Positions 1 through 40,220 of a DNA stretch of 64,000 nucleotides are shown in pieces; the stretch's first letter is position 1, and the number at the start of each line of letters is the position of its first letter. The position numbers and the translations under genes were made by a program. The notes under the pieces were generated by a model. The model searched no databases, had not been told where the DNA came from, and saw only the letters and a list, made by a program, of their open reading frames with translations. The stretch comes from an uncultured Acidimicrobiaceae bacterium (GTDB taxonomy: Bacteria > Actinomycetota > Acidimicrobiia > Acidimicrobiales > Bog-793), in assembly GCA_963838845.1 (NCBI GenBank), contig CAWISR010000003.1, positions 1,092,322-1,156,321 on the forward strand, read 5' to 3'.

Positions 1-2583
1 CCCAGGAAGACGACGTACGGCTCGCTTCCCTTTCGCGGTCGAGACACCGAACTCGCACGATTGCTCGAAATGTCCGCGCAGGCGCGCGAGGGATCAGGGT
101 CGACTGCCGTCATCGAAGGTGAACGCGGTGCTGGCAAATCGCGGCTCCTCACCGAGTTCCTCAGCGCGGCCGTGCCCGCGGAACGCGTCCTTTACTTACA
201 GGGCGAGACGTTCGGCAACGCGGTGCCGTACTTGCCGATACGCGGCGCGTTGCGGGACCTGCTCGGCATCGAGGCGCGCGACCGGCAGGGCGCAGGGCGA
301 GAGCTCCATGCGGCGCTCGAGATCCTGGGAGCGGGCCTCGTGCCGTTCGCACCGCTCCTCGCTCCGGTCGTCGACGCCATCGTCGCTCCGACTCCGGAGA
401 GCAAGGCGGTTGCGCCCGAGTTCGTAGGCGAACGGCTTGCAAGCCTGCTCGTCGAGCTACTCGAGCTCGCGTGTCCGGAATCCTTGCTTGTGGTCGCCGA
501 AGACGCGCACTGGTTCGATGACACGACGACGGCAATCTGTGATCGACTGGCGAAAGCGGCTCCGGTGCATCGCTGGTTCATCTGTGTCGTTCGTCGACCC
601 GATTCCGGGGGGCTCGATCTGCCGGAGGCCACGGCGCGGCTTTCGCTCGCTCCGCTCGACAATAAAGTTTCGCGTGAGATCGTCGATGCGGCCACCGAGG
701 GGGTTCCGCTTCGACCGCACGAGCAAAAGGAGCTCGTGGCGAAGGCGGGGGGTAATCCGCTCTTTCTGGAAGAGCTGCTACGCATAGTTCACGCCACCGA
801 CACCGAAGCGTTGCCGGACTCGCTCGAGGCGGTCGCGATGCGCGAGATCGACCTGCTGAATGCCTCGTCGCGGCGCGTGCTGCAACTCGCTTCGGTGTTC
901 GGGCGGACGTTCTCGGTGCACTTGCTGTTCCAACTTCTTTCTGACGAAGACGTCGACGTCGACGGCGACCCGCTCCTCGGTCTTCAAGGACAGCTCGTGC
1001 GTGACGAGGCCGGGGAAGTGCATTTCCGCCACGCGGTGCTGCGTGACGCCGCGTACCACAGCCTGCCGTTCCGAGCCCGCCTGAGATTGCACCGTCGAGT
1101 CGCGGAGACGATCGCACTCGCCGCCCAGTCGATCGACGAAGTCGCCGCGCAGCTGTCGATCCATTACGGCGCCGCCCAGGATTGGGAGCGCACCTGGCGA
1201 TACGCCCGGTTCGCGGCGCGCACGGCACAGGACGCCCACGCGCCGAGTGAAGTCGCCGCGCATTTGGAACGGGCGCTGACCGCCGCTCGGCGGCTCAAGA
1301 AGGTCGACCCCGAGGAGTTGGCGAACGTGCAAGCCGATCTCGGCGCGACGTTCGAGTTGCTCGGGGAGTACGAGCGGGCCGACTTCGCGTACGGTCAATC
1401 GGTCCAGGCAGCAAAACGAGACCCCTTGCGGCGAGCCGAAGTGGCCGATCGCCGCGCCTTCATCAAGAGCGAATATCAGGGCCGACCGACAGCTGCGATC
1501 CGAGAGGTACGAGCCGCGCTCGCTCAACTCGACAGGGTTCTATTGAGCGATGCCAACGCCGGTCGGGTGCGTGCGAAGTTGCTCGCCCGCGAAGCTGACG
1601 TGCGTTGGCGCGAGGGACGTCTCGTCGAAGCCGTCGCGTGTAGCGAGCGGGCGATCGCGGAGGCAGAAGAGGTTGGCAATCGACGGGCGCTCGCTGTCGC
1701 GCTCTTCGTGCTCGACGCCTGTCTCATCCGGATGGGTCGCCCACAGGAGGCGACTCACATGAATCGCGTGCTCGAGCTTTTTGAAGAGCTTGACGACCAC
1801 GTCCAAGTGGCGGTCACGCTCGGGAATCTCGCCGCCGTCGCTTTTTTCAATTCGAAGTGGGAGATGGCGGCCGAATACATCCAGCGTTCCGCAGACGCCT
1901 CTGTCATCGCAGGCGATCTCGCCGGCGCGGCAATCGCCGAGATGAACCTCGGGGAGCTGCGTGTGAATCAGGGATATCTGGACGACGCGGTGGCGTTGCT
2001 CGTCCCGGCTCGCCGGACGCTCGAATCGTTCGGGTACCGCCATATGGCGGCCGCGGCGGCAATGCAACTCGGTCGCGCCCGGGCGTTCCTCGGCGACCCC
2101 GATGCCGGGATCGAATTGGAGCAATTCGCTGTGTCGACGTTCGACGAGCTCGGCGCCCGCGTCGAATCGATCGAGGCGCGTGCCCGGTTGGCCGAGGTCC
2201 TCGTGTTCGGAGGTCGTCTCGACGACGCGAAAGCCCCGCTCGCGCAAGCGCGCAGGATAGGGCGTTCGAACGCGGATAACCCACATCAGGCGCTCCTCGA
2301 TCGCGTCGAACTCACACTCGCCGCGTCTTCCGGCGATCGATCGGCCGCTCTCGCGAAACTGAACCGCGTGGTCGCGCGCGCCCGCCAGAGCGGCGCTGAC
2401 TACGACGTGCTCGTCCTGCTCTCGCTCGCCAAGCGACTCGGCGATGATGGTGACAGCGCCGAGGTCTCGCGCCTAGAGCGAGACCTCGGCGTCGTCAAGT
2501 TAGCGATGTTGCGAGATGCGGACTCGGACCTCACCCCCCGTCGCGCAGCTGCCAGTCGGTCAACCCGCTCCACGTCTCGGTGA
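1..2583 (+). CDS. AAA_16-type ATPase / TPR signal-transduction regulator, 5'-truncated by the window edge
   Basis: Frame 1 is open from nt 1 (PRKTTYGSLPFRGRDTELARLLEM...). Walker A GERGAGKSRL and Walker B-like LLVVAEDAHWFDD are present, followed by a long helical TPR-like C-terminal region. No HTH is visible at the C-terminus. Relatives of this architecture often carry an N-terminal cyclase domain, which would lie outside the window. Confidence 0.7.
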   Translation, partial: PRKTTYGSLPFRGRDTELARLLEMSAQAREGSGSTAVIEGERGAGKSRLLTEFLSAAVPAERVLYLQGETFGNAVPYLPIRGALRDLLGIEARDRQGAGRELHAALEILGAGLVPFAPLLAPVVDAIVAPTPESKAVAPEFVGERLASLLVELLELACPESLLVVAEDAHWFDDTTTAICDRLAKAAPVHRWFICVVRRPDSGGLDLPEATARLSLAPLDNKVSREIVDAATEGVPLRPHEQKELVAKAGGNPLFLEELLRIVHATDTEALPDSLEAVAMREIDLLNASSRRVLQLASVFGRTFSVHLLFQLLSDEDVDVDGDPLLGLQGQLVRDEAGEVHFRHAVLRDAAYHSLPFRARLRLHRRVAETIALAAQSIDEVAAQLSIHYGAAQDWERTWRYARFAARTAQDAHAPSEVAAHLERALTAARRLKKVDPEELANVQADLGATFELLGEYERADFAYGQSVQAAKRDPLRRAEVADRRAFIKSEYQGRPTAAIREVRAALAQLDRVLLSDANAGRVRAKLLAREADVRWREGRLVEAVACSERAIAEAEEVGNRRALAVALFVLDACLIRMGRPQEATHMNRVLELFEELDDHVQVAVTLGNLAAVAFFNSKWEMAAEYIQRSADASVIAGDLAGAAIAEMNLGELRVNQGYLDDAVALLVPARRTLESFGYRHMAAAAAMQLGRARAFLGDPDAGIELEQFAVSTFDELGARVESIEARARLAEVLVFGGRLDDAKAPLAQARRIGRSNADNPHQALLDRVELTLAASSGDRSAALAKLNRVVARARQSGADYDVLVLLSLAKRLGDDGDSAEVSRLERDLGVVKLAMLRDADSDLTPRRAAASRSTRSTSR

Positions 2584-5407
2584 CGTCGGTGTAGGTCGTG
2601 TCGTTCACGGTGACGAAACTGAAGTTCTTCGCCGTCGTGCACAGTGGATCGTCCGCCGACGCCTGGGCGCAGAAGGTCTGTGGTTCGAACGTGATCCCAT
2701 CCAACGAGACGTACGTCGTCGGGCAAGCCGGCAAGTCGCCCGATCCGGCCGTCGGCTCGCATTCTGGCAGGTCGCCCCAGTTGATGGTCACCGTGAACGG
2801 AATCGTCGGCGAATCGGGCGACTTGTCGAAGACGACCGAGCGGTGCGTCGTGACCGGTGTTCCGTTCACCGTGAAGTTCTCCAAGTCGTTCGCGTTCGCA
2901 GTGAACTGCGTGTAGTTGACGCACCCGCTGTCATTGGGATTGTCAGAGGGGTAGGTGAGGCTCACGCCGACCGGCCCGGTTCCAAGGGTCGCCGTCCCCG
3001 TCTGGATCGCGGTGATCGTGTCCCCGGGACAGATCTGACCCGGCACCGTGGTGATCGAGGCGTCACAGTTGCCGGCGGAGGTCGAGCAGCTCGGCGGCGT
3101 GCCGGTCGCGGCGGAGAGCGTGCCGCTGATTCCCTCGTTCGCGGCGCTGAACGATGGTGCAGAAGCATTCACCGTCACCGTCTCTGCGGCTGGGTCTGTG
3201 ACCATCACCGAGCATGATCCCGACGTCGTCGTGCAAGACACCGCAGTGCCGAGGTTGTCGTTGCTCGCGTCGGTGAAGTAGGCGCTCCCGCTCGGGGAAG
3301 GCAACGAGAAGTCGACCGTCGCGCCGCTGTCGGTGATGTCGGTGTACGTCGAGCCGTTCGTCGTGTACTGCAGCTGTGCCGTCTCCGTGACGACCCCGCC
3401 CAAGGCGTTGCTCGCGGTCGTCTCGGGGGTGAGGGTGATGCCGCCTTCCGCCCAGATCTGCGTCGCGTCACACTTGCCCGTCATTCCGGGACAGTCCGAA
3501 GTCGTCATGTCCGTCGATCCGGTGAACATTCCCGAGATATTCTCCGCACTCGCGCCGAAGGTCGACGTGGCGTGGACGGTTGCTGTCTCGGGATTGGGGT
3601 CGTTGACGATCACCGAGCACGATCCGGACGATGTCGTACACGTCGTGGATACGCCGAGGTTGTCGTTGCTCGCGTCGGTGAAGTAGGCACCGCCGCTCGG
3701 GGAGGACAACGTGAAGTCGACCGTCGCGGCGCTGTCGGAAAGGGTCGTCCAGCTTCCACCGGGCAACATGTACTGCAACGTTGCCGCGATCGTGTCCGAG
3801 TTCCCGGTCGCGTCCGTCGCCGTCTCCGGCGACAAGGTGATGCGTGCCTCGGACGTCTGGACGTATTCGTTGCCACACGGGCCGGTCGTCGACGCGTAGT
3901 CGGGATTCGTCGAGGTATAGGTGTCCCGCCAGTAGTACGTGGCGAGGTCCGACGCGGTATAGGCCAACGACGTCGCGGAGAACGGACTTCCGTTCGACGC
4001 GTTCTCGGTGTCGGTGAACACCGGCGTCGTGACACAACTCGAGTCGTTCTTGTACAAGTTGAAGGTGATCGTCCCCGTCGGGTTACCGAACCCCGTGATC
4101 GGGGTGAGGGTCGCCGTGTCAGAGATCTCGAAGCCGACTGGGGCGGTCAGGCCGCCGTTTGTCGCCGAGGTCGCGGTGTCCGTGGCGTTGTTCGGGTCGG
4201 TCACCGTCGTCGTCGTGTGCATCGTCGGCGGTCCGGGCACGACGAACGTCGTGCAGGACTCGGCCCCGCCCGTTCCTCGCTGACCCGGGTCGACTTCAGG
4301 AGCGAGGGCCTGAATCCGATAGGTGTCACCGGGAATCAGCCCCGTTGTCGAGCCCTGGTTCGCGATCGTCATGCCCGCGAACGAGCTCGCGTTCCAGACG
4401 ACTTCGGATCCGTAGCCCTGGTTGAACTGTGTGGCGGGGTTGAACGGCGGCGTGTCCGCGTACGGTCCGAGATCCCAGTTGTTCGGCACCGAGGCGAACG
4501 TCGGCACGCCAAAGGAGGACGTGGCGTTGTCGGTCGCCCAGTCCCCGTAGATCGCGTTGATGAAGCTCGTTCCCGTGCCGCCCTGCTCCCAGTCACCGGC
4601 GTAGTAAGCGGGCGTGTTCGGCGTGAGCAGCGCGCCGTTCGGCTGGGTCAGGTTGGTGAGGTACAGCGCTGGATGGTCGGGGCGCGAGGAGGATCCCCCG
4701 AGGGTGAGCTCGGTCGCGGCCGGGTCTCCGATGCTCGGGTTTGTCGCTTCGCCGTAGGGCAACGCGGTGTCGACGACAATCGTCCCCGCCGGGAAGGCGT
4801 TGTGACCAGTACTGAACGCGTTGACGGTGATCGTCGTTGCGCCCTGAGCCGCCGGCTGCGCCACCGTGATGTGGTTGATCTCGAGCCCGCCCGAAATGAG
4901 GGTGAGCGAGTCGCCGGTCGCGTAGGCGACCGGAAGCGCGGCGACCGAGAGCGTCGTGTACTGCGTGTTCCTCTGCAGTCCGCTGCCGGTGAGCGTCGTT
5001 TGGCTCACTGCTTGCCATGCCGTCGGCACGGCAGAACTCGACTTCGTCTGCACGCCGAGGAGAAGGTCCGACTCGTCGTTCGCGAAGAGACCGATGTGAG
5101 CCGAAAGCCCGACTCCGTAGACCTTGAGTCCCTGGATGACGGACTGTTCCGGCATCCGAATCGACGAACCGTAAGAACCCTGAGACGTCTTAGTGGTCGG
5201 TTGGTAGTTCGCGTACGCCGAGGACGAAACCGGGTAGCCGCACGAGTCCGCGTTGGTCGGGGGTGGCAGATACGTTGCGGCCGATACGCCGTTTGCGACG
5301 AACGCGACGACCGGCGCGACGACGCCCGAAACCAACAACGCGCACATCGCCAAAGTGCGGCGCCGCGTCGGCCGGGCATGGACGCGACTGTCACCAAGGA
5401 ACCGCAC
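2531..5407 (-). CDS. Large secreted Thr/Ser-rich protein with tandem Ig-like (Big-type) modules; adhesin-like, function unknown
   Basis: The longest ORF is 2531-5563. The preferred start is the GTG at 5407, preceded by GGGGGAGG plus a 7-nt spacer. The signal-peptide-like N-terminus is VRFLGDSRVHARPTRRRTLAMCALLVSGVVAPVVAFVANGVSAA. Two roughly 134-aa modules are duplicated in tandem. The opposite-strand ORF (3572-5500) is Arg-rich shadow sequence. Confidence 0.8.
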   Translation of the reverse strand: MRFLGDSRVHARPTRRRTLAMCALLVSGVVAPVVAFVANGVSAATYLPPPTNADSCGYPVSSSAYANYQPTTKTSQGSYGSSIRMPEQSVIQGLKVYGVGLSAHIGLFANDESDLLLGVQTKSSSAVPTAWQAVSQTTLTGSGLQRNTQYTTLSVAALPVAYATGDSLTLISGGLEINHITVAQPAAQGATTITVNAFSTGHNAFPAGTIVVDTALPYGEATNPSIGDPAATELTLGGSSSRPDHPALYLTNLTQPNGALLTPNTPAYYAGDWEQGGTGTSFINAIYGDWATDNATSSFGVPTFASVPNNWDLGPYADTPPFNPATQFNQGYGSEVVWNASSFAGMTIANQGSTTGLIPGDTYRIQALAPEVDPGQRGTGGAESCTTFVVPGPPTMHTTTTVTDPNNATDTATSATNGGLTAPVGFEISDTATLTPITGFGNPTGTITFNLYKNDSSCVTTPVFTDTENASNGSPFSATSLAYTASDLATYYWRDTYTSTNPDYASTTGPCGNEYVQTSEARITLSPETATDATGNSDTIAATLQYMLPGGSWTTLSDSAATVDFTLSSPSGGAYFTDASNDNLGVSTTCTTSSGSCSVIVNDPNPETATVHATSTFGASAENISGMFTGSTDMTTSDCPGMTGKCDATQIWAEGGITLTPETTASNALGGVVTETAQLQYTTNGSTYTDITDSGATVDFSLPSPSGSAYFTDASNDNLGTAVSCTTTSGSCSVMVTDPAAETVTVNASAPSFSAANEGISGTLSAATGTPPSCSTSAGNCDASITTVPGQICPGDTITAIQTGTATLGTGPVGVSLTYPSDNPNDSGCVNYTQFTANANDLENFTVNGTPVTTHRSVVFDKSPDSPTIPFTVTINWGDLPECEPTAGSGDLPACPTTYVSLDGITFEPQTFCAQASADDPLCTTAKNFSFVTVNDTTYTDVTETWSGLTDWQLRDGG
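3040..3841 (-). repeat. Tandem duplication (period about 402-405 bp) encoding two Ig-like modules inside the secreted protein gene
   Basis: An identical 36-nt core, gccgaggttgtcgttgctcgcgtcggtgaagtaggc, occurs at 3248-3283 and 3653-3688. At protein level, ITLSPETATD...ATVDFTLSSPSGGAYFTDASNDNLG...GSCSVIV matches ITLTPETTAS...ATVDFSLPSPSGSAYFTDASNDNLG...GSCSVMV. Confidence 0.9.
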
Positions 5408-5721
5408 GATACGACCTCCCCCCTCGTGCAGGTGCACAACCGGCTGCGCGCCTGCGCCGGACTCCGCACGGCGTTTGCAAGAGTAAGTGTCAAGGGATGA
5501 GCGCGCCATAGGCGACGCAGGGAAATCCATGCCGATTCCGACGCGCAACGCGCACGTCAGCAAGATTCAGGGACGCAGCGTGCTTGGTCTTTCACCCATC
5601 GTGGCAAGCGGCGGTGGTATCTCGCTTCACGACGTGGAACTCCGTGCGGCAGGGTGTGCGCTTTCGCCGAGCATGCGCGCACCTCGCGTCGAGCGAGCCC
5701 GCCCGGGTTCAGAGATCGTCG

Positions 5722-18337: not shown

Positions 18338-19144
18338 ATGACGGTGAAGACGAACGAGCGTCCCGGGACGAGGGCGACGCTGCGCTACTGCCGGCTCTCG
18401 AGCTACAAGGCCCGCGAGGTCCTCGATCTCATCCGGGGCCTCGACTACACACGCGCGGTCGAGCTGCTCGACCACACCCAGCGCGCCGGCGCGCCGATTG
18501 TCGCGAAGCTCTTGCGCTCGGCGGCGTCGAACGCCGAGCACAACGATTCGCTGTTCCCAGAAGAGCTCTACGTCGCGACGGCGTTCGCGGACGAGGGCAC
18601 GACGATGAAGCGTTGGCGACCCCGCGCCCGCGGACGGGCGACGCGCGTGCGCAAACGCACGTGCCACATCACGATCGTGCTCGCCCGCATGCCGGAAGAC
18701 CAGGTTGCGCGCCTCAAGGCGCGTGCTGCCGCGCAGCAAGCCGACCGCCGGGCGCGCAGGGTCGCCGGGTCGCGCCGACGCGCCGCGCAGGTGGAGCAGG
18801 TCTCCGAGGAAGATGAGGTGCCGTCGGAAACGGGTGACGAGACCGCTTCGACCGCCGAAGACGAAGTGAGCGAGGTCCCCGAGCTCGAGACAGATGCTGC
18901 GGACGCAGAGGACGAAACGGGCGAAGACGAAACGGAGAGTCAAGCAGCCGTCGCCGCGCCGGCGGCGAAGAAGGCGGCCGCGAAGAACAAAGCCGCGAAG
19001 AAGGCGCCGGCTAAGAGGACCGCCGCCAAGGTGACCGCCGCCAAGAGGGCGCGGCCCGAGAAAGCGGCGAAAAAGACCGTGCAGGCGATCTCGAAGATCG
19101 CCAAGAGGTCCGGGCGGAAGCCCCAGGCAAAGGACGAGGGCTGA
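18338..19144 (+). CDS. rplV: 50S ribosomal protein L22 with long acidic plus Ala/Lys-rich C-terminal extension (268 aa)
   Basis: The core reads [34 protein letters not shown]...[24 protein letters not shown]. An E/D-rich block follows ([45 protein letters not shown]), then [41 protein letters not shown]. Confidence 0.93.
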
Positions 19145-20076
19145 TGGGTCAGAAGGTCAACCCGTACGGGTTCCGCCTCGGGATCACGACGGACTGGAAG
19201 TCGCGCTGGTTCGAAGACCGCGGCTACCAGAACGCGGTCGTCGAGGACTGGAAGATCCGCAATTATCTGATGACCCAGCTCGAGTCGGCCGCGGTGAGCC
19301 GCATCGAGATCGAGCGGACCCGCGACCGTTTGCGCGTGGACATCCACACTGCGCGACCAGGCATCGTGATCGGCCGGCGCGGAGCCGAGGCCGACCGTTT
19401 GCGTCGCTACCTCGGCCGGATGACGAAGAACGCGAACATCCAACTGAACATCCAAGAGATCAAGCAACCGGAGCTCGATGCGGCGCTCATCGCGCAGGGC
19501 ATCGCCGACCAGCTCGCCCGGCGCATCAGCTTTCGGCGCGCGATGAAGCGCGCGATCCAGACGGTGCAGAAGGCGGGTGCGCTCGGTGTGCGCGTCCAGT
19601 GCGCGGGCCGCCTCGGCGGATCCGAGATGTCGCGGAAGGAGTCGTACCGCGAGGGCCGCGTACCGTTGCATACGCTGCGCGCCGACATCGACTACGGCAT
19701 GCGCGAGGCCCGCACGTCGACCGGGCGCGTCGGCGTCAAGGTTTGGATCTACAAGGGCGACATCCTGCCCTACCGCACCTCGCCCGAGGACAAGATCTCC
19801 CGCGAAGCGGCGATGGCAGTCGGGGAGACCTCCGGCCAGGCGCGGCCGCGGCGCATCGTGAGCGCTGGCGGCGGACGACGTCGCCCGGACATGGCCGAGC
19901 CCGGCGCGGCACCAGAAGAGGTTGCCGAGACAGAAGAGCCCGCCGAACCAGCGGAGGTCATCGCTGCGACGCCCGACGACGCGCTCGAACGACTGTTGGC
20001 AGAAGAAGAAGAGATCGAACGCCGTACCCGTGACGAGCATCACGAGGCGCCGCACTTCCGCAAGGAGACGGACTGA
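19144..20076 (+). CDS. rpsC: 30S ribosomal protein S3 with C-terminal extension (310 aa)
   Basis: [23 protein letters not shown]...; KH domain present; acidic/Pro-rich tail ...[44 protein letters not shown]... Confidence 0.96.
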
Positions 20077-21394: not shown

Positions 21395-21700
21395 GTGAAG
21401 ATCCATAAGGGAGACACCGTCGAAGTGCTCTCGGGCAAGCACCGCGGCAAGACCGGCGAGGTCATCCGCGCCATCCCGAAGAAGAACCAAGTGATCGTGG
21501 CAGGAGTGAACATCGCGAAGCGCCACCAAAAGCCGGTGCGCGCAACGATGCAGGCCGGGATCATCGACAAGGACATGCCGCTGCCGGTCTCCGCCGTGGC
21601 GCTCGTCTGCGCGAAGGACGGCCCGACGCGCGCCGCCACGCAGGTCGAGCCCGGCGGCTCGAAATCGCGCGTCTGTGCGAAGTGCGGGGGGAAGCTATGA
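21395..21700 (+). CDS. rplX: 50S ribosomal protein L24
   Basis: [46 protein letters not shown]...; the GTG start directly follows the rplN stop. Confidence 0.95.
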
Positions 21701-22278
21701 GCACTGCCACGCTCCCCGAACGGCCTCGCCTTCGCCGCCGCTACGACGAGCAGTTGCGCGACGAGCTCAAGACAGCGCTCGGGCTGAAGAACGTGATGGA
21801 GGTCCCGACCCTCGAAAAGATCGTGCTGAACTGCGGAGTTGGACGGGCGATACAGCAGCAGTCGTTGCTCGAAGGCGCGGTGCGCGACCTCTCGACGATC
21901 ACTGGCCAGCGGCCGGTAGTCACCCGCGCCCGCAAGTCCATCGCCTCGTTCAAGTTGCGCGAAGGGAATGCGATCGGGGCGATGGTTACCCTGCGCGGCG
22001 ACCGCATGTGGGAGTTCTTCGACCGCCTGGTGTCGATCGCGATCCCGCGCATCAGGGACTTCCGCGGGCTGAACCCCCGCGCTTTCGACGGGCGGGGCAA
22101 CTACACGTTCGGTATCACCGAGCAGCTGATCTTCCCGGAGATCAACTACGACTCGATCGACGCGACCCGGGGGATGGACATCACGATCGTCACGACCGCG
22201 AAGACCGATGCTGCGGGAAGGGCGCTGCTCAGCGCGCTCGGGCTTCCCGTTCCGCAGGGAGGGGTAACGAAGAAACCG
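21697..22278 (+). CDS. rplE: 50S ribosomal protein L5; no in-frame stop before rpsN, so the ORF continues to 22464
   Basis: [49 protein letters not shown]...[34 protein letters not shown] reads directly into MAKKAL... An ATGA overlap joins it to rplX. The end coordinate given is the codon before the rpsN ATG. Confidence 0.9.
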
Positions 22279-22464
22279 ATGGCGAAGAAAGCACTCGTCG
22301 AAAAGCAGCAGCGCACTCCGAAGTTCAAGGTACGCGGCTACACGCGTTGTCGCCGCTGCGGACGGCCGCGCGCCGTCTTCCGGAAGTTCGGGATGTGCCG
22401 GATCTGTCTGCGCGATCTCGCGCTCACGGGCGAGATCCCCGGTGTGACAAAGGCGAGCTGGTGA
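22279..22464 (+). CDS. rpsN: 30S ribosomal protein S14, zinc-ribbon type Z (61 aa)
   Basis: [61 protein letters not shown], with a CxxC...CxxC pattern. GGAGGGG lies upstream. It is in the same frame as rplE. Confidence 0.93.
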
Positions 22465-34850: not shown

Positions 34851-36197
34851 ATGTCGTTGCGCTTCGGGACCGATGGCATCCGGGGCGTCGCCAATCGTGA
34901 GCTGACCCCGGAGGTCGCCCTCGCGCTCGGCCATGCGAGCGCGCGCCACCTTCAGGGTTCGGCGTTCTTCGTCGGCTCAGACACGCGGCGCTCGAGCCCG
35001 ATGCTGAAAGCAGCGCTCGTTGCCGGGCTCGCGTCTGAAGGGCGTCATGTCTTCGACCTCGGCGTCCTGCCGACGCCCGGTCTCGCGTGGATCGTCGCCT
35101 CTCGTGGGATTCCGGGCGCGATGGTGTCGGCTTCGCACAATCCCTTCCCGGACAACGGGATCAAGCTCATTTCGGAAAAGGGTACGAAGCTCTCCGACGC
35201 GCTCGAGCGCGAAATCGAGTCCGACCTCGCCCGCGTCCTCGTAGCCGCCCCCATCGAAGGACAGGAGCACTTGGTCGGGGAAGCGCTCGGCGAGATCGAG
35301 GACGCCCAGAAACTGGTCGGTGAATACGTCGACCACCTCGTGCAGTCCGTCGACGTGCCGTCCGATTTCGCGGTCCAGATCGTTTGTGATTGCGGGAACG
35401 GCGCCGCATACCAGGTCGCGCCGGCCGTCTTCGAGCGCCTCGGGATCGACGCGATGGTGATCAACGACACTCCCGACGGGACGAACATCAACGCGAAGTG
35501 CGGCGCAACGGCACCGATGATGCTCGGGCAGGTGGTGGTCGAGAGCGGCGCGGACCTCGGCCTGAGCTTCGACGGCGACGCTGATCGGATGATCGCTGTC
35601 GATGGGCTGGGAAACGTCGTCGACGGCGATGTGCTGATGGCCCTCTTCGCCCTCGATCTGAAGGATCGTGGCGAGCTCGCGAATAACGCCGTTGTCGCGA
35701 CGGTGATGAGCAATCTCGGATTGCGAAGGACGCTGATCCGCGGTGGCATCGAGCTGATCGAAACGCCCGTCGGCGACCGCTACGTCGCGGACGCGATCGA
35801 CGAACTCGGTCTCGTGCTCGGCGGTGAGCAGTCCGGCCACATCGTCTTCCGGAAGTACGCGACGACGGGCGACGGAGTCCTGACCGGGATCAAGCTCCTC
35901 GAGCTTGTCGCACGCTCGGGCCTCAGCCTCGCCGAGCTCGCGGACGACGCGCTGACCCGGGTGCCACAGGAGCTGCGCAACGTGAAAGTCATGTCCCCGG
36001 ATCGTCTCGAGACGGCGTCAGGCGTTTGGAAGGCGGTCGCCGAGGTCGAAGCGCGCCTCGGTGATTCCGGGCGGGTCGTCATCCGTCCGAGCGGAACCGA
36101 GTCGGCAGTGCGCGTCATGGTCGAAGCTGACGATGTGGAAATGGTCGATCGGGCGCTTTCAGCGATCGTCGAGGCCGTCGAGCTGGAACTCGGCTGA
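34851..36197 (+). CDS. glmM: Phosphoglucosamine mutase
   Basis: MSLRFGTDGIRGVANRELTPEVALALG...GAMVSASHNPFPDNGIKLI...FDGDADRMIAVD... Confidence 0.95.
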   Translation: MSLRFGTDGIRGVANRELTPEVALALGHASARHLQGSAFFVGSDTRRSSPMLKAALVAGLASEGRHVFDLGVLPTPGLAWIVASRGIPGAMVSASHNPFPDNGIKLISEKGTKLSDALEREIESDLARVLVAAPIEGQEHLVGEALGEIEDAQKLVGEYVDHLVQSVDVPSDFAVQIVCDCGNGAAYQVAPAVFERLGIDAMVINDTPDGTNINAKCGATAPMMLGQVVVESGADLGLSFDGDADRMIAVDGLGNVVDGDVLMALFALDLKDRGELANNAVVATVMSNLGLRRTLIRGGIELIETPVGDRYVADAIDELGLVLGGEQSGHIVFRKYATTGDGVLTGIKLLELVARSGLSLAELADDALTRVPQELRNVKVMSPDRLETASGVWKAVAEVEARLGDSGRVVIRPSGTESAVRVMVEADDVEMVDRALSAIVEAVELELG

Positions 36198-36282
36198 ATC
36201 GACGACGGTATCGAGCGTTATCTCGTGCAGGCGTCGATGACGACGGCGAGCCTCCAGTCCTCCCTGTTCAGCTCCTGCGGCT

Positions 36283-38073
36283 TCATGGTCCGGTAGCCCG
36301 CCACGTGACGTCGAAGGAATCTCCGGACCCGTAGTCGGTAGGGGTATCGACCTCGTCAAGGACCGACGTGTCGGCGTTGTTCACCATGTCCATCCCGGTC
36401 GTGCTGTAGTCCGTGATGGGCTCGGCTGGGCTGCTGGCGGTTGCCGCATTCGCGTCCGAGAAGAAGGCTGTCCCAAAATTTGCCAGCTGAGGGAATGCGC
36501 AATTTGAGCAGGTCTCTGGCCGCTCGACGATCCATTCCGCTGACGACTCTGCTGCTCCAGAGAAATCGATCGTCGTCGAGAAGGACCCGCTCCAGTGCGA
36601 GTCATCGAGAGTGAGCGTCCATTGCTCTCCTGAGATACTGACGGAGGCAGTGATTTCGTCGCCAGGAGAGACCGGATACTGAGAGGGGCTCAGCTCGACC
36701 TCGTAACCGCCGTCGACGGCGGGATCGCCATACATTTCGTACCAGGCGTCGTATTGAGCCGTGCCGCCCCGACAGTCCGATTCCGTTCCGTCCTGCTCAA
36801 CCGTCGAACTTGCGAAGCCGTCGATCCCAATCCACTGGGACGAGTACTGGTCGGTGGTTACTCCAAGACAGGAGACCGAAGCCACGGTCCAGCTCGCGGT
36901 GACGTCTTCGAAGGTGGATGCTGCACACGGATCCGTGACCGCGTAACCGGACCAGTTCGTCGATCCCGCCGTCCCGACTGTCAATTCGGCGGCGTCTGTC
37001 GTCGTCGAGCCCAAACCGCTCGTGAACACCGCCTCGACTTCTTCGTTGTTGTCAGACGTGGTCGCCGAGAACGAGTAACAGGACGAAGTCTGCCCCGAGA
37101 CCGGTTGCCAGGTCGCCCCGTCATTAGTCGAGACTTGCCATTGAATTGCGGGCGTTGGGGATCCCGAAGCCTCTGCGGTGAACCAGGCGGTCGTGTTAGC
37201 GAGCACCTCCTCACTCTCGGGTTGTTCGATGATCGCCGGATCGATCGTCAGGGTCGCCGCGTCCGTCGTCGCCGCACCAGCCGAATTGGTGAAGATCGCT
37301 TCGAACTCGTCGCCATCTTCCGACGATGAGGCCGCGAACGAGTAGGAGGTCGATGTCGCACCGCTCACGGTGTTCCACTCGACGCCGCTGTCATCGGAGA
37401 TACGCCACTGGACGGACGGCTGCGGCGTGCCCGACGCACTGGCGGTGAAAGTCGCGGTCGTGCCATCAGGGACGGTCTGGTTCGAGGGCTGAAGTGTGAC
37501 GGTGGGTGCGCTCGTCGTTGAGGAGGGGGGTGGCGGGGGTGAGGGAGGAGGTAAAGGAGACGGAGTGGGTTGCGAGGTGACGAGGGCTGCGGGAGTCGGG
37601 CTACCGCGCTCGACCACTGATACGGTCCGGCGCCTCGAGGTCGTCTCGTTGATGGCGGACAGCTCGAAGCGGAACGAGCGAGGGGATGAGGATGGATTGT
37701 CCGGAAGAGTAATGAGGACGCGACGTGCCCCCGAGGAGCACGGAACGCGTTTCGAAAGATGCGGCTTCGCCGACGTGAAAAGGCAGGTTTGTGCGCCGTT
37801 CACCACGGCGAGAAGTTCGACTCGTCCTCCAGCCGAAGACAGCAGCGCAGGGATCGCCGAGAACTTCGAAATCTGAAGGGCTACAGCGCGCGGCGCAAGT
37901 CCGAGCGAAGCGACGATTCGATGCGTAGCAATGACGCGGGGGGAGCGGTCGGCAGTTTGGGGTCTCCCGCCGTGCGCATTTAACGCACCGAAGGTGGCAG
38001 TACTAAGTAGTGCGACCAATCCGAGGATCGGGCACAGGCGCGCGACTCGGCTCGTGAGCTTCGCGCATGTCAC
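36283..38073 (-). CDS. Secreted multidomain protein: signal peptide, N-terminal domain, Pro-rich linker, two Ig-like (I-set-type) domains and a C-terminal peptidase G1 (eqolisin / Peptidase_A4)-like domain
   Basis: The N-terminus reads MTCAKLTSRVARLCPILGLVALLSTATFGALNA and the linker PTPSPLPPPSPPPPPSS. The two repeats are TVTLQPSNQTVPDGTTATFTASASGTPQPSVQW... and IIEQPESEEVLANTTAWFTAEASGSPTPAIQW... The C-terminal domain carries STNWSGYAV...SSQWIGIDG...VEQDGTE...SAEWIVERPE, which are G1-family hallmarks. Confidence 0.75.
   Translation of the reverse strand: MTCAKLTSRVARLCPILGLVALLSTATFGALNAHGGRPQTADRSPRVIATHRIVASLGLAPRAVALQISKFSAIPALLSSAGGRVELLAVVNGAQTCLFTSAKPHLSKRVPCSSGARRVLITLPDNPSSSPRSFRFELSAINETTSRRRTVSVVERGSPTPAALVTSQPTPSPLPPPSPPPPPSSTTSAPTVTLQPSNQTVPDGTTATFTASASGTPQPSVQWRISDDSGVEWNTVSGATSTSYSFAASSSEDGDEFEAIFTNSAGAATTDAATLTIDPAIIEQPESEEVLANTTAWFTAEASGSPTPAIQWQVSTNDGATWQPVSGQTSSCYSFSATTSDNNEEVEAVFTSGLGSTTTDAAELTVGTAGSTNWSGYAVTDPCAASTFEDVTASWTVASVSCLGVTTDQYSSQWIGIDGFASSTVEQDGTESDCRGGTAQYDAWYEMYGDPAVDGGYEVELSPSQYPVSPGDEITASVSISGEQWTLTLDDSHWSGSFSTTIDFSGAAESSAEWIVERPETCSNCAFPQLANFGTAFFSDANAATASSPAEPITDYSTTGMDMVNNADTSVLDEVDTPTDYGSGDSFDVTWRATGP
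36976..37506 (-). repeat. Two tandem Ig-like domain coding repeats (about 88 aa each)
   Basis: Residues about 190-277 and 279-366 of the ORF are parallel: T(A/W)TFTA(S/E)ASG(T/S)P(Q/T)P(S/A)(V/I)QW...G..W..VSG.TSS.YSF.A...E(F/V)EA(I/V)FT...G..TTDAA.LT(I/V). Confidence 0.8.
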
Positions 38074-38372
38074 AAAGCGAGATTCTTCCAGAACGATTAC
38101 CTAATTCACTGAAATTTTTCGTTCGCGCTCCACGGGGTTGATCGACCGCCGACGGTGATCGACGTAGCGCGTTTTCACTACCCGGGCGACGATCCGGGGT
38201 GGTTTGACAACTACCTCATCGCGCTGAAAGGCAGCACGAGCATTCCCAGCTCGGTCAGCCGAACGTGGCGACGCCTCGACGTTCGCCCCTTCTGGGAGCC
38301 CGTTGCGGGTCGGCACAGATTCGTGGGTCCGTTCTTCACGGGGGAGTGCGTCCCCCCGTAGCCTGGAGCGAT

Positions 38373-40220
38373 ATGTGCGGGATCATCGGAGTCTCCGGTT
38401 CTGAGCAGCCGCTCTCGTTGCTGCTCAGGGGCCTCGAGGCGCTCGAGTATCGCGGCTACGACTCAGCTGGGGTTGCGCTCGTGGACGCGTCTGCTGGCGA
38501 GCTGTATGTGGAGAGATCTGCCGAGCAGACAAGATCCGTCGAAAAGCTCCTCGCGAAGGTGTCGAGCGCGCCCACGACCTCCTCGGCTGGGATCGGCCAC
38601 ACGAGGTGGGCGACGCACGGCGCGCCGGTCGAAGAGAATGCACACCCACAAATCGATTGCAATGCGTCGGTCGCGGTTGTGCACAACGGCATCATCGAGA
38701 ACCACCGCGAGCTCTCATCCGTATTGACCGAACGCGGGCATCATTTTCGGTCGGAGACGGACACCGAGGTGATCGCACACCTGATCGAAGAGGAACTCAA
38801 ACGGGGTTCGCGCCTTCGTGACGCAGTTCGCAAGACGATCGGCTTGCTGCGCGGCGATTTCGCGATTGCTGTTGTCGCACTCGGCGAGCCCGACACGATC
38901 GTCGCCGCTCGCCGGACGTCTCCGTTGATCGTCGGTCTCTCCGACGAGCTCGGGCTCGTTGCCTCCGACATCTCCGCCTTGCTCGAGACCACCCGCCGGC
39001 TTTTTGTTCTCGAAGACGACCAAATTGCCGAGGTCGGACCGGGCCGGGTTGAAGCCTTCGATCTCGAAGGACGCGAGATCGAGCTACGCCCGCTCGAGGT
39101 CTCGTGGTCCGTCGAGGACGCACGTCGCGAGGGGTATCCGGACTTCATGTCAAAGGAGATTCACGAGCAACCGGCCGCGGTTGAACAGACGCTGCTCGGA
39201 CGGACGTCAGCCGACGGCGCGACGGAAATCGAGGAGCTTTCGATTTCGCCTTCGCAGCTCGCGGAGTATTCACGCGTTCTCCTACTTGGATGCGGATCGA
39301 GCTATCACGCGGCTCTCGCCGGGCGGCAATCGATCGAAGCGCTCGCCAACGTTCACGCCGATGCTGACATCTCGAGTGAGTTCCGGTATCGGAGGTCGAG
39401 CGTCGGATCAGAGACGCTCGTGATCGCGATCAGTCAATCTGGTGAGACCGTCGACTCATTGCACGCGATCCGTGAGGCGCGCGCTCGAGGTGCGGCGGTC
39501 ATCACCGTTTCAAACGTCGTGGATTCGGTGATGGCCCGAGAATCGGATGGTGTCTGTTACACCCACGCTGGTCCGGAGATTGGTGTTGCCTCGACGAAAT
39601 GCCACGTCGCACAGGTGGCGCTGTTGCAGGTCTTGGCTCTGCACCTCGCCCGATCTCGTGGGGTCATCGAGGCGGCCGCCGCGAAAGCGTTCGCCTCGAG
39701 CCTGAACGACCTGCCCGATCTCGTCGGACGGGCGGTCGATCGGTTCGACGAATACCGACAGGTCGCGAGGGAGTTCGCATCCGTTGATGACGTGTACTTC
39801 CTCGGGCGGCGGTCCGGCTTGCCGATCGCGATGGAGGGCGCGCTGAAGCTGAAGGAGCTCGCGTACGTGCGCGCCGAGGCATACCCCGCGGGTGAGATGA
39901 AACACGGGCCGATCTCCCTGATCGAACCCGGTGTCGTGGTCGTGGTCGCCGCAACTCGGAATCCGCTCTGGGAAAAGGTGATGGCCAACGTCGAGGAGAT
40001 GCGTGCTCGTGGCGCAACGATCATCGCGATCTGCGATGACGGCGATGACGAGACGAGTGAACTCGTCGACGCCACCCTCTCCATTCCTCCGACGCCGGAA
40101 CTGTTGTCGCCGATCGTCGCTGCCGTCGCGACACAATCGTTCGCCTATGAGGTCGCGCGTGCGCGCGGAAAGAACGTCGATCGTCCGCGCAACCTCGCAA
40201 AGGTCGTCACCGTCGAGTGA
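38373..40220 (+). CDS. glmS: Glutamine--fructose-6-phosphate aminotransferase (isomerizing)
   Basis: MCGIIGVSGSEQPLSLLLRGLEALEYRGYDSAGVAL...; two SIS domains; ...NLAKVVTVE. GGAG lies 6 nt upstream of the ATG at 38373. Confidence 0.97.
   Translation: MCGIIGVSGSEQPLSLLLRGLEALEYRGYDSAGVALVDASAGELYVERSAEQTRSVEKLLAKVSSAPTTSSAGIGHTRWATHGAPVEENAHPQIDCNASVAVVHNGIIENHRELSSVLTERGHHFRSETDTEVIAHLIEEELKRGSRLRDAVRKTIGLLRGDFAIAVVALGEPDTIVAARRTSPLIVGLSDELGLVASDISALLETTRRLFVLEDDQIAEVGPGRVEAFDLEGREIELRPLEVSWSVEDARREGYPDFMSKEIHEQPAAVEQTLLGRTSADGATEIEELSISPSQLAEYSRVLLLGCGSSYHAALAGRQSIEALANVHADADISSEFRYRRSSVGSETLVIAISQSGETVDSLHAIREARARGAAVITVSNVVDSVMARESDGVCYTHAGPEIGVASTKCHVAQVALLQVLALHLARSRGVIEAAAAKAFASSLNDLPDLVGRAVDRFDEYRQVAREFASVDDVYFLGRRSGLPIAMEGALKLKELAYVRAEAYPAGEMKHGPISLIEPGVVVVVAATRNPLWEKVMANVEEMRARGATIIAICDDGDDETSELVDATLSIPPTPELLSPIVAAVATQSFAYEVARARGKNVDRPRNLAKVVTVE

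Follow-up and report, generated by a model that had tools for sequence, protein, structure and literature searches.

The L5 gene (rplE) and the S14 gene (rpsZ) of the window, by which we mean the whole 64,000-nt stretch of DNA analysed here (Acidimicrobiales, GC 67%), are read as one open reading frame (ORF), and we consider it probable, at about 75%, that the insertion in L5 behind this reading is a consensus indel artefact and that rplE and rpsZ are ordinary separate genes. According to this explanation, the spc operon would here contain a normal pair of rplE and rpsZ, with translation of L5 (189 aa) ending at TAA 22265-22267 and that of S14 (61 aa) beginning separately at ATG 22279. An extra base at CTCGGGC shifts the frame off the real L5 tail, and a further base in the spacer by chance brings the shifted frame into the phase of rpsZ, so that two genes are read as one ORF. 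We infer from sequence comparison that the extra base in the window is most likely an artefact rather than a real mutation, and the route of its origin is proposed on the same footing.

As written, the locus shows a single uninterrupted ORF from 21682 (GTG) or 21697 (ATG) to 22464, with no 0-frame stop between 21697 and 22461. An earlier sequence-only reading had described an rplE that has no stop and reads in frame into S14, with complete L5 and complete Zn-type S14, and the ORF, Pfam and NCBIfam agree with this description. The long ORF carries the Pfam domains Ribosomal_L5 (PF00281, 94 bits) and Ribosomal_L5_C (PF00673, 131.9 bits), both above the curated cut-offs, as well as Ribosomal_S14 (PF00253). 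In NCBIfam, the ORF as written is matched to the L5 equivalog NF000585 with 275.2 bits (cut-off 186), and S14 is full length (NF005974, 118.3 bits, positions 1-61 of 61) with two CxxC pairs. The genes are arranged as L14-L24-L5-S14-S8-L6-L18-S5, which is the order of the spc operon. The same reading had pointed to a GGGG run (22261-22264) directly before a +1-frame TAA (22265-22267), which is 11 nt before the S14 ATG at 22279, and these coordinates are confirmed. The S14 ATG coincides in the alignment with the start, annotated or inferred, of S14 in five relatives (L002-L004, L165 and L166), and S14 is a separate 61-aa gene in L002, L165 and L166. GGAGGGG probably doubles as a Shine-Dalgarno-like element for S14, and we do not regard it as a stimulator of frameshifting. 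The features of the locus are summarized in Table 1.

Table 1. Features of the rplE-rpsZ locus, with positions counted in the window.
Feature	Position	Strand	Basis
rplE body, L5 residues 1-181 (...AGRALLSAL)	21697..22239	+	Pfam PF00281 and PF00673; NF000585, 275-282 bits; 96% identity to L5 of L001-L004
Extra-base site, C-GGG inside GCGCTCGGGCTTCCC	22239..22242	+	Alignments; relatives are 1 base shorter (CTG GGC, CTC GGC or CTC GGG, then TTC)
Canonical L5 C-terminus in the +1 frame, GGC TTC CCG TTC CGC AGG GAG GGG TAA (GFPFRREG-stop)	22241..22267	+	Translation; same tail in P0013, P0016 and P0022
GGAGGGG, final L5 sense codons, Glu-Gly (AGG GAG GGG)	22258..22264	+	GAGGGGTAA also in relatives with separate genes
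rplE-rpsZ spacer, 11 nt	22268..22278	+	10 nt in L001-L004, L165, L166 and L006
rpsZ, type-Z (zinc-type) S14, 61 aa, own ATG, CRRC and CRIC cysteine pairs, stop TGA at 22462-22464	22279..22464	+	NCBIfam NF005974; Pfam PF00253

The break in the frame was found at CTCGGGC (22239-22242), about 20 nt upstream of the GGGG run. In DNA alignments to L002 (GCA_049696635.1), two Logan short-read contigs (L003 and L004) and two JGI contigs (L165 and L166), the window is 1 base longer at GCGCT[C]GGGCTT, and the alignment leaves it ambiguous which of the four bases 22239-22242 was added. This extra base is located eight codons before the true end of rplE. The 13-nt form as written (junction 22235-22247) is CTCGGGCTTCCC, or CTCGGGCTTCCCG. 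If the insertion is an artefact, the true junction would have 12 nt and would be CTCGGCTTCCCG, CTGGGCTTCCCG or CTCGGGTTCCCG, possibly mixed, as against the 13-nt CTCGGGCTTCCCG.

The +1 frame from 22241 encodes GFPFRREG followed by a stop, which is the same C-terminus as in the nearest L5 proteins obtained by searching a large protein collection, namely P0013, P0016 and P0022 (94%, 90% and 86% identity), each of 189 aa. Deleting either C 22239 or one G yields the same 189-aa L5, in which 182 of 189 residues are identical to P0013. With one base removed, the NF000585 score goes from 275.2 to 281.6 bits, and the match reaches profile position 180 of 181. For membership in the L5 family, the GFP-type tail (GFPF[RK] in most) with a stop within a few codons, which is conserved in the clade, is absent from the body frame as written (GLPVPQGG..., no stop), and it is regained in frame once one base is removed at 22239-22242, restoring the canonical protein.

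These results bear on how the junction had been interpreted from the letters. An assembly indel had been among the options, and it is now the best-supported one, with the relatives 1 base shorter, while its site is 22239-22242 and not the GGGG run at 22261-22264. Losing one G from GGGG, which had been proposed as the repair, gives a protein ending in LPVPQGG, which is not seen in any relative. The restored stop is indeed the expected TAA at 22265-22267, and it is preceded by the canonical GFPFRREG rather than by PQGG. Likewise, the relatives do have one base fewer at the junction, as had been anticipated for an artefact, and this base lies outside GGGG; the second extra base, in the spacer, had been missed.

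A coding signature of a linker was searched in the fusion frame by GC3, rare codons and substitution pattern, and it was not found. GC3 is 8/8 in the canonical tail vs 8/13 in the fusion frame (background 0.86; binomial P = 0.024), and the rare codons CTT, GTT, GTA and AAA occur in the fusion frame.

The second extra base is located in the A run at 22273-22275 (GAAG[A]AACCG), and only the window has it. Because of this base in the spacer, the shifted L5 frame is in phase with S14, and the “fusion” of the window is the sum of two +1 indels. They are the only indels in 4.8 kb whose length is not a multiple of three, and they are 34 nt apart. Given a shifted tail, the chance of in-phase readthrough is about 0.26 (0.79 x 1/3), in which an off-frame stop density of 0.018 per codon gives a probability of 0.79 for no stop in 13 codons and 1/3 accounts for the phase. 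The extra A of the spacer may be genuine, as a neutral intergenic indel, or may come from a second consensus error.

To describe the junction in related organisms, we collected the other loci from Acidimicrobiia, and it turned out that none of them (0 of 154) has a fused L5-S14, while the GFP-type tail followed by a stop is found in all (154 of 154). In all the genome or assembly loci holding both genes (83 of 83), L5 ends in a GFP-type tail (GFPF with few exceptions) and a stop, and S14 is encoded separately, with rplE-rpsZ spacers of -1 to 155 nt; the same holds for all the metagenome loci with the junction (71 of 71) and for L165 and L166. A genuine fusion had also been among the options drawn from the sequence, and a conserved obligatory one is contradicted by the separate genes in these 154 relatives. 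For an evolved fusion, we looked for a fusion clade or for its presence in close relatives, and neither was found among the 154 loci or in the protein database, where the “fusions” are singletons with unrelated junctions. In the sister lineage of the window (L002-L004) the genes are separate.

The GLPVPQ tail was found only in the window and in one more distant record, L001. A search with the junction peptide returned no other carrier of LGLPVPQ among the 10 scored candidates, a small sample in which all tails are of GFP type, and the exact DNA pattern of the junction had 0 matches in JGI metagenomes. Exact matches to the 255-aa and 260-aa fusion and to L6 of the window were also sought in the protein collection, and none was found. 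A protein-guided metagenome scan gave only relatives of at most 80% identity, each with the two genes separate; they were used as background and are too distant to test the insertion itself.

L001 contains the first insertion only, and its L5 runs out of frame across rpsZ, giving a 249-aa product (P0005) with no S14 called. The tree over 4.8 kb is ((window, L002), L001), with 91.8% identity between the window and L002, 84.0% between the window and L001 and 84.1% between L001 and L002; 534 informative sites support (window, L002) vs 156 and 158 for the alternatives. Since the insertion is present in two non-sister lineages and absent from the sister of the window, it does not follow descent. 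Besides, neither the window nor L001 shows any decay of the canonical tail with its TAA in the +1 frame, and the sole difference between the two tails (AGG/AGA) is silent when read in the canonical frame and replaces Gly by Arg when read in the fusion frame. Around the site, the window and L001 share a stretch of 34-38 nt without any difference. Recombination between the two as the source of the shared insertion was rejected, because L165 and L166 differ at just 2-4 positions there; the identity would fit ancestral codons that were retained under strong GC3 bias.

The quality of the two carriers was then compared. L001 is contig_29287 of ERZ25039491, a 491-kb contig with a Flye-style “contig_N” name. 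Its rplB (L001:5944-6056) contains a 2-nt deletion that turns GCCCGC into GCGC and shifts the frame after GGGGKLAR, with the correct continuation in another frame. In Pfam, the L2_C domain of L001 gets 33 bits and covers profile positions 2-33 of 126, vs 177 bits for the full domain in the window, and it is very unlikely, judging by this truncation, that the L2 of L001 would be functional. The rplB deletion is almost certainly a consensus error in the public record. Because it removes most of L2_C, the L001 record contains consensus indels.

In the window, no further frame breaks were found in about 50 genes checked by Pfam or by comparison with L001. All ribosomal protein genes from S10 to L15, SecY, Adk, Map, S4, RpoA and TruA are intact, and so are, among others, GlmM, GlmS, Nnr, Alr, UDG, TsaE, TsaB, RimI, TsaD and GroEL. 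At 43.3-45.1 kb, tsaB or tsaE had been suspected to be split, and this was dismissed, with UDG, TsaE, TsaB, RimI and TsaD each intact. A crude GC3 segment scan for frameshifts was too noisy, with antisense frames scoring too, and the homology and Pfam checks were used instead. No rRNA or tRNA matches were obtained in the window, and thus no rRNA operon, which would be a pointer to long reads, was found; the lower-GC stretch at 36-41.5 kb is protein-coding (peptidase A4, GlmS, Nnr) and not such an operon.

Several other observations were made along the window. Between glmM and glmS, in the lower-GC stretch of 36000-40000 (62.5% vs 67%), a 596-aa ORF on the minus strand (36283-38073) combines Peptidase_A4 (eqolisin-type glutamic peptidase) with an immunoglobulin I-set domain, which is an unusual pairing. 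Another minus-strand ORF (2531-5563; 1010 aa) shows GC3 like that of coding sequence along about 815 codons and has no Pfam match; its neighbour on the other strand (61-2583) is a regulator-like gene of the AAA_16/TPR type. Long C-terminal extensions rich in Lys and Ala are present in L22 (about 259 aa in L001) and in S3 (about 314 aa), and in the window they are encoded at 18880-19070 (rplV 3' part) and at 19940 (rpsC 3' part). These tails differ among the window, L001 and L002 by several indels whose lengths are multiples of three, indicating fast evolution of the tails with the frame kept.

Calls of “L5-S14 fusion” also exist in the public data. In a database of 5.8 billion proteins there are dozens of them (P0001-P0087), mostly in singleton clusters, with erratic lengths and unrelated junctions, which are either frame-shifted LPVP-type tails or lost stops, and some include L24. 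The median contig is 58.6 kb for these calls vs 2.9 kb for normal L5 (p = 1e-7). For example, in the 90% cluster of P0027, the members from short JGI contigs are plain S14 (68 aa), and “fusions” of 222, 255, 256 and 380 aa are from contigs of 100-290 kb. From this pattern, the calls look like annotation artefacts that recur and not like members of a fusion family. MFD metagenome-assembled genomes (MAGs) are Nanopore-only, assembled with Flye and polished by one round of Medaka (PMC12313526), and the MFD MAG records in this comparison carry “contig_N” names. Among the loci compared, 2 of 150 ribosomal protein genes in MFD loci are frame-split vs 2 of 1222 genes elsewhere (odds ratio 8.2; p = 0.06), an enrichment that is no more than suggestive. 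The frame-split genes, which belong to the same operon in other relatives, are L14 in L052 (MFD01138), L18 in L065 (MFD05442) and L24 in the JGI contigs L090 and L143.

As for the origin of the L5 insertion, an error of consensus calling or polishing, in an assembly of long reads or of mixed strains, is the most likely one. Synonymous variation among the relatives is high in the Leu/Phe-Gly codon pair that precedes FPF (CTC GGG, CTC GGC, CTG GGC, TTC GGN), and their in-frame alleles include CTC-GGG-TTC (5 loci), CTC-GGC-TTC (4 loci) and CTG-GGC-TTC (4 loci). The 7-mer CTCGGGC equals the union of two synonymous alleles, either CTC-GGG-TTC and CTC-GGC-TTC or CTG-GGC and CTC-GGC, and a mixed-strain consensus could therefore emit both bases. 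Three points were counted against an artefact. The window is otherwise clean and so not obviously an error-rich assembly, and a change of GG to GGG or the gain of a single C does not resemble the classic errors at long homopolymers. For the same error to arise in two independent assemblies, moreover, a context-specific or mixed-allele cause would be needed, of which the alleles of the relatives suggest one possible form.

The contrary reading is that the extra base is real in the window and in the more distant L001, with either a +1 slip at CUC-GGG-CUU or a tolerated L5-S14 chimera beside an independently initiated S14, and we regard it as unlikely. In the chimera, an L5 with a changed tail would be fused to S14, and free S14 would also be produced by internal initiation at ATG 22279, where the ATG and its upstream purine-rich element are intact. 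The second insertion would then have been fixed because in-frame readthrough is less harmful than about 60 out-of-frame codons across rpsZ, as in L001. The same insertion in a second, independent record and the lack of other frame breaks in about 50 genes of the window speak for a chimera, while the off-tree distribution of the insertion would demand two identical recent events, and the GFP-type tail is kept in every one of the 154 other relatives. Moreover, translation of the fusion frame is disfavoured by GC3 and rare codons, and the canonical tail with its stop has not decayed in the +1 frame, the one substitution being synonymous there only. The only other carrier, L001, has the disabling rplB frameshift in the same record. 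In the ribosome, uL5 is located on the central protuberance of the 50S subunit and uS14 in the head of the 30S subunit, and, from the textbook structure, a 12-residue tether could not let both of them sit in place during subunit cycling. Taken with its supporting points, the chimera is a doubtful explanation.

A real insertion might also be bypassed by programmed +1 frameshifting at CUC-GGG-CUU, in which the P-site tRNA-Gly would move from GGG to GGC with the rare CUU in the A site, regenerating canonical L5. CTT indeed makes up 5% of Leu codons (4.3 per 1000 codons), a +1 shift at this exact spot restores the canonical protein, the sequence around the site is identical in the window and L001, and a slip predicts the conservation of the canonical tail in the +1 frame that was found. 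A stimulator is lacking, with neither a 0-frame stop nor an SD-like sequence a few nt upstream of CTCGGGC, and re-pairing from GGG to GGC leaves a wobble mismatch. The site is absent from L002-L004, L165, L166 and 150 further relatives, which needs a gain with precise losses or two gains, and an abundant essential protein is not expected to rely on an inefficient, unstimulated slip; the unrelated rplB frameshift in the L001 record counts against it too. We thus take such a slip to be very improbable. To the prfB-like termination that the sequence-only reading had raised, we give next to no credence. It supposes that tRNA-Gly slips by +1 on GGG-G (22261-22264), stimulated by the overlapping GGAGG, and that L5 ends with PQGG at the TAA. 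The G run, the following +1-frame TAA and the SD-like GGAGG are present. In prfB, the SD-like stimulator is about 3 nt upstream of the slip site, whereas in the window the SD-like element overlaps it, and the slip site has no 0-frame stop or hungry codon, with GTA as the 0-frame codon after GGG. In relatives without a frame problem, GAGGGGTAA is plain Glu-Gly-stop, so that GGAGGGG represents conserved Glu-Gly codons before TAA, and a non-canonical product ending in LPVPQGG has no counterpart in the close relatives, with their GFPFRREG, or in any of the 154 loci, which all have a GFP-type tail. When the window was checked for a 0-frame stop or slow codon, an upstream SD-like stimulator and a conserved out-of-frame arrangement, as in prfB-type sites, none of them was found.

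If the L5 insertion is a consensus artefact as preferred here, the locus serves as a warning for quality control and annotation, showing that one consensus indel near the end of rplE is enough to mimic an “L5-S14 fusion protein” convincingly. Public collections already contain dozens of such calls, concentrated on long contigs, and these would mislead the mining of domain fusions or the use of L5 and S14 as phylogenetic markers. For apparent readthrough, the conserved C-terminus should be checked in the other frames, not the nearest stop alone, since the obvious repair at GGGG leads to an incorrect protein. Were the base real, the window would have a rare frame-disrupted essential ribosomal protein gene, which would need recoding or make a protein linking the subunits; nothing in the present findings requires this.

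A search of the literature returned no reports of an L5-S14 fusion. The ubiquitin-eS31 and ubiquitin-eL40 fusions are conserved and undergo processing, and their partner does not belong to the other ribosomal subunit. In these eukaryotic proteins, a ribosomal protein is likewise contained within a longer ORF (PMC5027506); unlike them, the L5-S14 “fusion” is missing from all clean relatives. The likeness to prfB (RF2) is superficial and consists of a G-rich SD-like element together with a stop that a +1 shift would reach, whereas the arrangement in the window is unconserved in the relatives, has no 0-frame stop and is predicted to give a non-canonical product. Pseudo-frameshifts of long-read metagenomes resemble the locus in the isolated 1-nt indel in an essential gene, in the concentration of similar “fusions” on long contigs and in the other carrier, a 491-kb “contig_N” with a second frameshift in rplB; they differ in that the window has no long homopolymer at this site and looks clean elsewhere. 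Finally, the locus after removal of one base is like the canonical rplE-rpsZ of Actinomycetota in its spc gene order, its 189-aa L5 with GFPFRREG, its 61-aa S14 with two CxxC pairs, its short spacer and the purine-rich last codons of L5. The window as written differs from it by the extra base in the L5 tail, a spacer of 11 nt instead of 10 nt and the merged ORFs. In conclusion, the repaired locus belongs to the L5 and type-Z S14 families as a standard member of each, and the L5-S14 “fusion” is most likely not a real feature of this genome.
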